Made by a program: the position numbers. From the NCBI RefSeq assembly GCF_056746865.1, contig NZ_CM163382.1: a stretch of DNA of 64,000 nucleotides. One strand, written 5' to 3'. Positions 15,601 to 18,600 of this stretch are shown piece by piece (within the stretch, counting starts at the first letter, position 1; every line of letters starts with the position of its first letter).

Positions 15601-18600
15601 CAATGCTTTCTGGAATATACCGCCGAGAATGCGAATTAAGATCCCCATCACACCGATGTAGTAGAGAATACTCACCAGTGCTGTAACGAAGATAATTGCC
15701 GGTAATACCCTGAAACCAAAGATAAATCCAGCGCCATCAAATAAGGTGTCCATTTTCGGTCCGACCAGAGAACCAAAGATAAATGCGCTACCCGCGTCGC
15801 TGTACGCCATCACTTTATGCACGCCAAAAGCGACTTTTTCAGCGACCCAACGCCCTGGCGGTAACCAAAGCATAATGCCGCCAATCACGACCTGTAACAC
15901 TAACGCCGCGCCAACGGTACGCAGGCTGATCTTCTTCTTGTTTACTGACAGCAAAAACGCAATTGCCAGCAATACCACCATTCCCAGAACACTTCTCATG
16001 ACATCCATAGTTATTATCTCTTCATGTCATTTTGGGCGACGGCTTTCTGCCCATCAGAAATAGCCGGGCCTGCATCTTGCGATACTGACCCGGCTTGTTA
16101 TCAACACTTAATGGGTTTTGATGTAGCCGCGCACGCACTCTTCGACTAATCCCCAGAACCAGTCGGTATCAATAGTGATGCCGACTTTGGTATTAGCGGG
16201 CTTGCCAAGAACGCCCAGCTCGTCGCAGACAGTACGCCCATAGCAAGGGCCACTGAACCGCCCCGGAAATCCTGGAGACTAAACTCCCTGAGAAAGAGGT
16301 AAACAGGATGACTAAAAATACTCGTTTTTCCCCCGAAGTCCGTCAGCGGGCGATTCGTATGGTTCTGGAAAGTCAGGATGAATATGACTCACAGTGGGCG
16401 GCAATTTGTTCCATTGCCCCAAAGATTGGCTGTACGCCGGAGACTCTGCGTGTCTGGGTTCGCCAGCATGAGCGGGATACCGGGGGCGGTGATGGTGGGC
16501 TCACCAGCGCTGAACGTCAGCGTCTGAAAGAGCTGGAACGTGAAAATCGTGAACTGCGCCGCAGTAACGATATCCTTCGCCAGGCTTCCGCTTATTTTGC
16601 GAAGGCGGAGTTCGACCGCCTCTGGAAAAAATGATGCCACTGCTGGATAAGCTGCGTGAGCAGTACGGGGTCGGACCGGTATGCAGCGAACTGCATATTG
16701 CCCCGTCAACGTATTACCATTGTCAGCAACAGCGACATCATCCGGATAAACGCAGTGCCCGTGCGCAGCACGACGACTGGCTGAAGAGAGAGATACAGCG
16801 CGTATACGATGAAAATCATCAGGTGTACGGTGTGCGTAAAGTCTGGCGTCAGTTGTTACGGGAAGGAATCAGGGTGGCCAGATGTACAGTGGCACGTCTC
16901 ATGGCGGTTATGGGACTTGCCGGTGTTCTCCGGGGTAAAAAGGTCCGTACGACCATCAGCCGGAAAGCCGTTGCCGCAGGCGACCGCGTAAACCGTCAGT
17001 TCGTGGCAGAACGACCTGACCAGCTGTGGGTGGCTGATTTTACTTACGTCAGCACATGGCAGGGCTTCGTCTATGTGGCGTTTATCATTGATGTGTTTGC
17101 CGGATACATCGTGGGGTGGCGGGTCTCATCGTCTATGGAAACGACATTCGTGCTGGATGCGCTGGAGCAGGCGTTGTGGGCCCGTCGTCCGTCTGGCACC
17201 ATCCATCACAGCGATAAAGGCTCTCAGTATGTGTCACTGGCCTATACGGAGCGACTAAAAGAAGCCGGATTACTGGCATCAACAGGGAGTACAGGCGACT
17301 CGTATGACAACGCGATGGCTGAGAGCATCAATGGTCTTTACAAAGCGGAGGTAATACACCGTAAGAGCTGGAAAAACCGTGCAGAAGTGGAACTGGCCAC
17401 ACTAACGTGGGTGGACTGGTATAACAATCGACGATTGCTGGGAAGGCTGGGCCATACTCCTCCGGCAGAAGCAGAAAAAGCTTATTATGCTTCCATCGGA
17501 AACGATGATCTGGCAGCCTGAGTTCACAGATAAAACACTCTCCAGGAAACCCGGGGCGGTTCACACTGTTGACGTCCACTTCGACGTACATCTCCTGGGT
17601 TTTAATGCCATCAGGGTTAATCAGATAACCGATGCAGGTGGCGTCATGCACCGGGCCGCCAGCCAGGCCGTAGTTTTCGAACTGCGTTTTTAGAGTGAAA
17701 TTCATGATGTCGCTGAACAGCTCTCCGGCGGGGCCGCCTACCCTTTCCATCCGGGCAATCACGTCCGGGGTGCAAACAGTCTGGTTGGTGAGATCGAGGC
17801 CCATCATCACCAACGGAACGCCGGAGGTGAACACCACGCGTGCGGCTTCCGGGTCGGCAAAGATGTTGAACTCGGCAGATGGGGTGAAGTTGCCTGTACC
17901 GTAAGCGCCGCCCATTAGCACAATTTCACGGATTTTCGGCAGGATCGCGGGTTGCATACGCATTGCCACCGCGATATTTGAAAGCGGACCAACCGGCACC
18001 AGAGTGATATCACCATCGCTTGCCATCAGGGTATCAATGATATATTTCACCGCATGAGTGCTTTCTGCCTGGCGGGTCAGCGGCCCGAATACCGGGCCAT
18101 CAAGTCCGGTTTCACCGTGAATATTATCGGCAACGATTTGTTGACGCATAATGGGCTGTGGCATCCCCGCATAAACCGGAACATTAATCTCCAGTTTCTG
18201 GCAAACATTCAGGCCATTAATTAATGTTTTATCAAGCGTCTGATTACCCGCCACAATGGTGATGCCTAATAAATCAATCACCGGATGTTTCGCGGCCATC
18301 ATTATGGCAATAGCATCATCATGACCCGGATCACAATCCAGAATAATTTTTCTCTTTTCCATTGTTTATTTCCTCTGTTTCCAGTTGCGTTATTTTTTCT
18401 ACAGCAAAGAAAATTCGACCGGGCCGATGATTGAATCTTAACAACAGCGTAAGTATGCTAAATATGAGAAATCTCATAGCGGATAAACATCGTGAAAGAA
18501 ATCCACAATAATGATCTTAAGCAGCAATTGATGAGTGAATCCGCGTTTAAGGATTGCTTTTCAACGGATGTTTCAGCCGATACGCGGCTGTTTCATTTTT

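Follow-up and report, generated by a model that had tools for sequence, protein, structure and literature searches.

The window analyzed here, a stretch of 64,000 nucleotides of contig NZ_CM163382.1, harbors an intact IS629/IS1203 element of the IS3 family whose orfA–orfB junction very probably serves as a recoding cassette. Its main −1 frameshift site would be a U_UUU tetramer followed by an apical loop–internal loop (ALIL) pseudoknot, with a run of six adenines (A6) at the orfA stop codon acting as a secondary site and an AUGA overlap providing for coupled synthesis of OrfB. None of this is new: the element, its frameshifting and the stimulator have been described before, and they are curated in Rfam and RefSeq. 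An earlier note on this DNA had proposed that the two transposase frames are joined at the A6 run; that placement is largely contradicted by the closest reference, for which the curated signal consists of U_UUU at 16595–16598 together with the ALIL pseudoknot, a signal that the note missed. The positions of the features discussed below are collected in the table.

Table. Features of the IS629/IS1203 copy and of its frameshift region, numbered from the first nucleotide of the window.
Feature	Position	Strand	Description and evidence
Complete IS629/IS1203 copy (IS3 family)	16254–17563	+	1310 bp; nucleotide identity, inverted repeats, empty-site reconstruction
Target-site duplication CAC	left 16251–16253, right 17564–17566	.	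Sequence and empty site
Left terminal inverted repeat	16254–16278	+	TGAACCGCCCCGGAAATCCTGGAGA; 25 nt, 88% complementary to 17539–17563
Right terminal inverted repeat	17539–17563	+	Repeat search; pairs with left copy
orfA	16308–16634	+	108 aa, HTH_Tnp_1; ORF list, Pfam PF01527 at residues 1–87
orfB	16631–17521	+	296 aa from ATG, −1 frame, HTH_21 and rve DDE integrase core; ORF list, PF13276, PF00665, PF13683
orfA/orfB overlap	16568–16634	+	67 nt, −1 shift here gives OrfAB; open orfB frame, orfA stop
ALIL pseudoknot frameshift stimulator, Rfam RF01497	16589–16705	+	121.5 bits, E = 9.8e-33, model positions 1–117 of 117
U_UUU slippery tetramer	16595–16598	+	Codons TAT TTT GCG; conserved, curated −1 site; ALIL register, conservation, RefSeq fusion
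ALIL stem-loop 1	16604–16620	+	GGCGG/AGUUCGA/CCGCC; Rfam structure, centroid fold, 98.5% of cells paired (13 sequences)
Stem-loop 1 apical-loop bases GUUCGA	16610–16615	+	Pair with internal loop 16671–16676 (UCGGAC)
ALIL stem-loop 2	16666–16705	+	Internal loop 16671–16676; Rfam structure, folding, covariation in helices 3–5
A6 run with orfA UGA (16632–16634) and orfB AUG (16631–16633)	16626–16636	+	Candidate secondary slippery site; sequence

Over its full length, the element is 100% identical to copies from E. coli O157:H7 and further strains that are annotated as "IS3-like element IS1203 family transposase", and a match to the 1310-bp sequence is present in 4252 of the 5426 complete E. coli genomes. 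The IS3 family is recognized here by two partly overlapping ORFs in frames 0 and −1, a helix-turn-helix (HTH) domain and a DDE core, inverted repeats, and a 3-bp duplication, which lies in the 3- to 4-bp range of the family; the fused transposase scores 370.7 bits against the NCBIfam model NF033516 (IS3 family transposase), for which the cut-off is 160. Assignment to the named element IS629/IS1203 follows from near-identity, with RefSeq-annotated copies as the reference, and from the length of 1310 bp. IS629, IS1203, and IS3411 are equivalent names (bioRxiv 10.1101/2023.06.07.543989). The inverted-repeat termini read TGAACC.../...GGTTCA over 25 nt of imperfect repeat, with the TG...CA ends found in the IS3 family. 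When the flanks are joined with one copy of CAC, an intact rihB gene is restored that is 100% identical to that of many other E. coli genomes; in this genome, rihB is inactivated by the IS629/IS1203 insertion. Because ends, duplication, identity, and transposase domains are all present, the element is an intact IS629/IS1203 copy, and as such it is presumably active. IS629/IS1203/IS3411 of E. coli O157:H7 and Shigella has the same 1310 bp, 25-nt repeats, 3-bp duplication, OrfA of 108 aa, and OrfB of 296 aa. The element itself thus does not differ from IS629/IS1203, and the one feature peculiar to this genome is the insertion site in rihB. In E. coli O157:H7 and Shigella, IS629/IS1203 is among the main sources of genome plasticity.

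The earlier note is borne out in that the element belongs to the IS3 family, its orfA and orfB occupy frames 0 and −1, and an OrfAB fusion is formed by a −1 shift. The end of orfA is also as the note had described it: TGG (16623), AAA (16626), AAA (16629), and TGA (16632), with A6 at 16626–16631 and the orfB ATG (16631–16633) sharing bases with the orfA stop in the −1 frame, so that ATGATG occupies 16631–16636. The overlap in which a −1 shift could join the frames is wider than the 17 nt that it had drawn around these bases, since the orfB frame is open from 16568 onward and orfA stops at 16632–16634. By codon list, the 67 nt contain exactly two in-frame tetramers of the form Z_ZZN, namely U_UUU (16595–16598) and A_AAA (16628–16631), and the U-run lies 31 bases upstream of the A-run.

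The U-run is conserved far beyond the enterobacteria. For this comparison, species-representative genomes were scanned for the stem-loop 1 sequence and the hits were filtered for an adjacent IS3 OrfA or OrfB; about half of the 120 scanned loci were dropped, either for having no neighboring IS3 OrfA or OrfB or for being too incomplete. The resulting 60 distinct elements span Proteobacteria, Actinobacteria, and other phyla, and all lie outside the enterobacterial clade that carries the A-run. UUUU or UUUC is found in the same register and frame in 53 of them, and T occupies the first position of the tetramer in 58 of the 60. Synonymous choice around the run is similarly skewed. The tyrosine codon before it is TAT in 35 of 36 cases, versus a background of 33% TAT elsewhere in the same elements, and the phenylalanine codon is TTT in 25 of the 32 TAT-TTx cases (background 21%). 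Moreover, the core of the run (T19–T21) is invariant in an alignment of 13 ALIL sequences, and the run is unchanged in nine enterobacterial variants from E. coli, E. albertii, and Raoultella. Tetramers differ in shift-proneness in E. coli, where A_AAG is the most shift-prone, U_UU.C ranks second, U_UU.U third, and A_AA.A comes last of the six that are active; A_AA.A is nevertheless usable though weak, and it has a good share among the elements of the IS1 and IS3 families (PMC4066793). The supplements of that study include none of IS3411, IS629, or IS1203.

The match to the ALIL model far exceeds the RF01497 gathering score of 50 bits, and RefSeq copies of the element carry an "AL1L pseudoknot" feature inside a CDS marked "programmed frameshift". 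Stem-loop 2 folds at −21.1 kcal/mol (z = −3.67), and none of 200 shuffled sequences was as stable. The loop–loop helix comprises six pairs, one of them G-U, with 91% of cells paired across the 13 sequences, which come from E. coli, Raoultella, Xanthomonas, Ideonella, Kozakia, Methylobacterium, Acinetobacter, Pacificitalea, Rhodococcus, Shinella, and Gordonia. In the same alignment, the whole ALIL structure has 89.8% of cells paired versus 33%–49% (maximum 48.6%) when the partner is slid by one to three columns. Ten ALIL pairs change on both sides, two of which belong to the loop–loop helix (G-C to A-U three times and C-G to U-A twice). Stem-loop 1 starts 5 nt 3ʹ of U_UUU, and tetramer and stem-loop 1 both lie upstream of A6. 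A distance of 5 nt is the usual spacing of a −1 stimulator from its slippery motif. Stimulation of −1 shifting at U_UUU by the ALIL pseudoknot is backed indirectly by this fixed 5-nt register and by the synonymous-site conservation described above.

In its layout, the structure resembles the ALIL pseudoknot reportedly described for IS3411 by Mazauric et al. in 2008, which has the same 5-nt spacing from the U-run and six apical-loop nucleotides able to pair with the stem-loop 2 internal loop. The linker here measures 45 nt and falls at the low end of the 44- to 104-nt range described for stem-loop 2 located 3ʹ of stem 1 (PMC5009743). The ALIL architecture has been described in IS3411 along with at least 27 further IS elements (PMC5009743). 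Relative to the family consensus GCUCGA/UCGAGC, the loop–loop helix is GUUCGA/UCGGAC, with U-A and U-G in place of C-G and U-A; pairing is maintained, and the difference is ordinary variation.

The A6 run takes its significance from its context and not from statistics. Counting both strands, the 64-kb window holds 68 A6 runs versus 70.5 expected and hence shows no enrichment. For a 67-nt stretch, the expectation is about 0.04, which makes the run mildly improbable by itself, and it is the single A6 run within the whole element. As a heptamer, G_AAA_AAA departs from the canonical X_XXY_YYZ pattern, given that the P-site AAA would re-pair on GAA with a first-position mismatch, and the only qualifying slippery motif in A6 is the tetramer A_AAA (16628–16631). 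A 3ʹ stimulator was defined as a stable structure 5–9 nt downstream of the motif. The earlier note had looked to folding of 16630–16700 for a stimulatory stem-loop downstream of A6; none is found at 16635–16666, which folds no better than shuffled sequences (z = −0.47) and is unstructured in the centroid. The nearest robust structure on the 3ʹ side is ALIL stem-loop 2, which starts 35 nt downstream and whose partner, stem-loop 1, is upstream of A6. On geometric grounds, the ALIL pseudoknot should be unable to act on A6, because a ribosome positioned there would already have unwound stem-loop 1.

Other candidates at A6 were considered and rejected. A 6-bp hairpin, ACUGCU/AGCAGU (16639–16644 with 16659–16664), appeared in one minimum-free-energy fold, was absent from the centroid of the longer fold, and was about as stable as shuffled sequences. 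For transcriptional slippage by bacterial RNA polymerase, the run is probably too short.

The distribution of the A-run is confined to an enterobacterial clade consisting of E. coli, Shigella, E. albertii, and Raoultella, and a run of more than three adenines before the orfA stop is present in none of the 60 distinct ALIL-bearing elements outside it. Within the clade, a run of five to six adenines is kept in all variants examined, and among the nine enterobacterial variants position 16631 is polymorphic for A and G, giving AAAAAA-TGA or AAAAAG-TGA. The orfA stop and orfB start vary among the same nine (TAA; ATAATT; GTGATG). Dual-frame coding constraint alone could account for the conservation of the A5–6 run in enterobacteria. 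In 37 of the 60 relatives, the −1-frame codon that overlaps the orfA stop is of start type (ATG, GTG, or TTG), and this, like the stop/start overlap of the present element (A-AUG-A), fits synthesis of free OrfB by termination coupling. Free OrfB from the overlap codon is not universal, however, because the pO45 variant has ATAATT and therefore no AUG at the overlap.

Both versions of the OrfAB junction have been deposited verbatim in public collections. The fusion through the U-run, with the junction peptide QASAYFCEGGVR, is found on 394 contigs and bears the RefSeq name "MULTISPECIES: IS3-like element IS1203 family transposase", and the fusion through A6 (...LWKK/MMPLL..., the slash marking the junction) is an "IS3 family transposase" at NCBI found on 158 contigs. 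The NCBIfam scores of the two fusions are 4.4 bits apart, a difference too small to discriminate between them. These deposited fusions mirror the choices of annotation pipelines rather than protein evidence, and the curated placement is the U-run. As a matter of annotation, the OrfAB junction belongs at 16598 and not at the A-run; beyond correct annotation, the relevance of the finding is small.

It is extremely unlikely that A6 (G_AAA_AAA, 16625–16631) is the site that joins orfA and orfB and that the U-run has no role. A6 does lie inside the overlap, directly 5ʹ of the stop, its A_AA.A tetramer is usable, if weak, and well represented in the IS1 and IS3 families (PMC4066793), every enterobacterial variant examined retains A5–6, and a fusion by this route has been deposited (158 contigs). 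Yet the ALIL pseudoknot is placed for the U-run, with stem-loop 1 upstream of A6 and unwound when a ribosome stands there, and no significant local hairpin follows A6 (z = −0.47). Across the ALIL relatives outside the clade, an A-run longer than three occurs in 0 of 60, whereas U_UUY occurs in 53 of 60. Furthermore, the first position of the heptamer is a non-canonical G, and the product curated by RefSeq has its junction at the U-run. The idea of A6 as a slippery site survives in part: it is one of the two in-frame tetramers, it abuts the stop, and a fusion through it is on deposit, but it is not the main site.

A second reading denies A6 any part in recoding. The run would then simply encode Lys-Lys in OrfA and Glu-Lys in OrfAB and would furnish an unstructured A-rich stretch with a weak GGA Shine-Dalgarno sequence for OrfB, with all OrfAB being made via the U-run. 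In keeping with this, 37 of 60 relatives without the A-run have a start-type codon across the orfA stop, most of the family lacks the run, no stimulatory structure adjoins it, and A_AA.A is the weakest active tetramer (PMC4066793); OrfB of IS629, moreover, is reported to modulate transposition (PMC5771124). This reading is nonetheless quite improbable. A title announcing "two frameshift products" implies a second site, as far as a title can be taken to do so, and A_AAA is the sole other in-frame tetramer. Additionally, the run, whether as A6 or as A5G (which gives A_AAG), is kept even where the AUG has been lost or changed, as in pO45 (ATAATT) and the GUG variants, and this retention suggests a greater importance of the run than of the start codon.

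The preferred reading thus combines a main shift at U_UUU with a secondary one at A6, and the model that we infer, as regards which slip site is used, how often, and how OrfB synthesis is coupled to orfA termination, is as follows. Most ribosomes translating orfA would terminate at the UGA at 16632–16634 and release OrfA. A fraction would slip by −1 at U_UUU, with tRNA-Phe moving from UUU at 16596–16598 to UUU at 16595–16597; this slip would be stimulated by the ALIL pseudoknot beginning 5 nt downstream and would yield the OrfAB transposase. The A-AUG-A overlap (16626–16636) would allow termination-coupled initiation of free OrfB. In the enterobacterial lineage, A6 would offer a secondary slip in which tRNA-Lys moves from AAA at 16629–16631 to 16628–16630, after which AUG is read. 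The product would be an alternative OrfAB (...LWKK/MMPLL...) that differs in 11 residues at the junction.

The A6 run is thus a probable clade-specific secondary shift site and not the principal one. It is rated as secondary because of the "two frameshift products" title, because A_AAA is the only other in-frame tetramer, and because the run is adjacent to the stop. Chen & Hu reportedly found in 2006 that TTTTG and AAAAT were both active in lacZ fusions of IS629. The title of that IS629 paper, as cited in PMC5771124, speaks of two frameshift products, and A6 probably corresponds to the second site behind them. To see the A-run beside the stop as the source of the second reported product is reasonable, but the idea is not a new one. 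In PMC5771124, with reference to Chen & Hu 2006, OrfB of IS629 is reported to reduce transposition. It is doubtful, though conceivable, that the A/G polymorphism at 16631 is a natural tuning switch, converting A_AAA to A_AAG and at the same time the OrfB start from AUG to GUG, and thereby altering how much of the second OrfAB isoform is made relative to inhibitory OrfB. If this were so, the switch could determine how active transposition is in a given lineage, as with the high activity of IS629 in O157:H7.

Slippage in the P site is classically associated with slippery runs that end directly at a stop codon. Weiss et al. are said to have described such an arrangement in 1987 as a "shifty stop", in which a slippery run lies next to a stop codon. 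The present element is similar in having AAA AAA immediately 5ʹ of UGA, and by analogy, slow decoding of the stop could favor slippage of P-site tRNA-Lys. The frameshift region of IS3 itself, as Sekine et al. reportedly found in 1994, combines A_AAG with an H-type pseudoknot, and its orfB AUG lies over the orfA UGA, an overlap thought to allow coupled OrfB synthesis. Like IS3, the IS629/IS1203 copy would shift on a single-tRNA tetramer and not a heptamer, has a downstream pseudoknot, and shows the AUGA overlap. Unlike IS3, it has U_UUU rather than A_AAG and an apical loop–internal loop rather than an H-type pseudoknot, and a second slippery run abuts the stop.

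The IS629/IS1203 copy, an IS3-family element, lies within rihB, the gene for ribosylpyrimidine nucleosidase, and splits it into two segments (see table). When the element and a single copy of the CAC target duplication were taken out and the flanks joined in silico, an intact rihB was regained at 100% identity. The ORFs on either side are ones that we take to be nupX/yeiJ and yeiL, the usual surroundings of rihB in E. coli, and the identity of nupX is backed by the annotation of a related genome. Among 5426 complete E. coli genomes, IS1203 is found near rihB in only four. In H84, the one of these four that was inspected, IS1203 sits between nupX and an uninterrupted rihB, so the insertion into rihB in the window appears, from these sequences, to be an event separate from that in H84.

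rihB and its neighbors in the window
Feature	Window position	Strand	Basis
Likely nupX/yeiJ (nucleoside transporter)	14758-16008	minus	ORF list and E. coli map
rihB (ribosylpyrimidine nucleosidase), split by IS629/IS1203 copy	16100-16253 and 17567-18362	minus	
Likely yeiL (Crp/Fnr-type regulator)	18492-19190	plus	ORF list and E. coli map

The orfA stop/orfB start overlap at window 16631 varies naturally between enterobacterial copies (loci L140-L142, L078, L017, and L005). In the AAAAAG-TGA-TG variant, of which one copy is annotated as intact, the stop-adjacent tetramer is A_AAG instead of A_AAA, and GUG takes the place of the orfB AUG. The pO45 variant, AAAAAATAATT, is without an AUG at the overlap, and the Raoultella variant reads AAAAAATAATG. 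The U-run, the conserved -1 shift site, is the same in every variant compared across these loci.

Among 60 loci from GTDB genomes (out of L018-L137), IS3-family elements bearing the ALIL pseudoknot occur in Proteobacteria, Actinobacteria, and contigs labelled Armatimonadetes, Chloroflexi, Gemmatimonadota, and others. Stem-loop 1 of the pseudoknot (GGCGGARYTCGACCGCC) is almost invariant across the 60, and the slip-site codons of actinobacterial members are mostly GCT TTC TTC rather than TAT TTT.

An Rfam scan of the entire window also returned a tRNA gene (49386-49459) and a gammaproteobacterial L25 (rplY) ribosomal-protein leader (45645-45670). L003, from Shigella flexneri plasmid NZ_CP138847.1, holds a degraded IS629 copy in which the orfB frame runs into a stop at 1078. 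Approximately 250 nt downstream of this copy, at 1859-1975, is a match to group II intron D1-D4 (83 bits).
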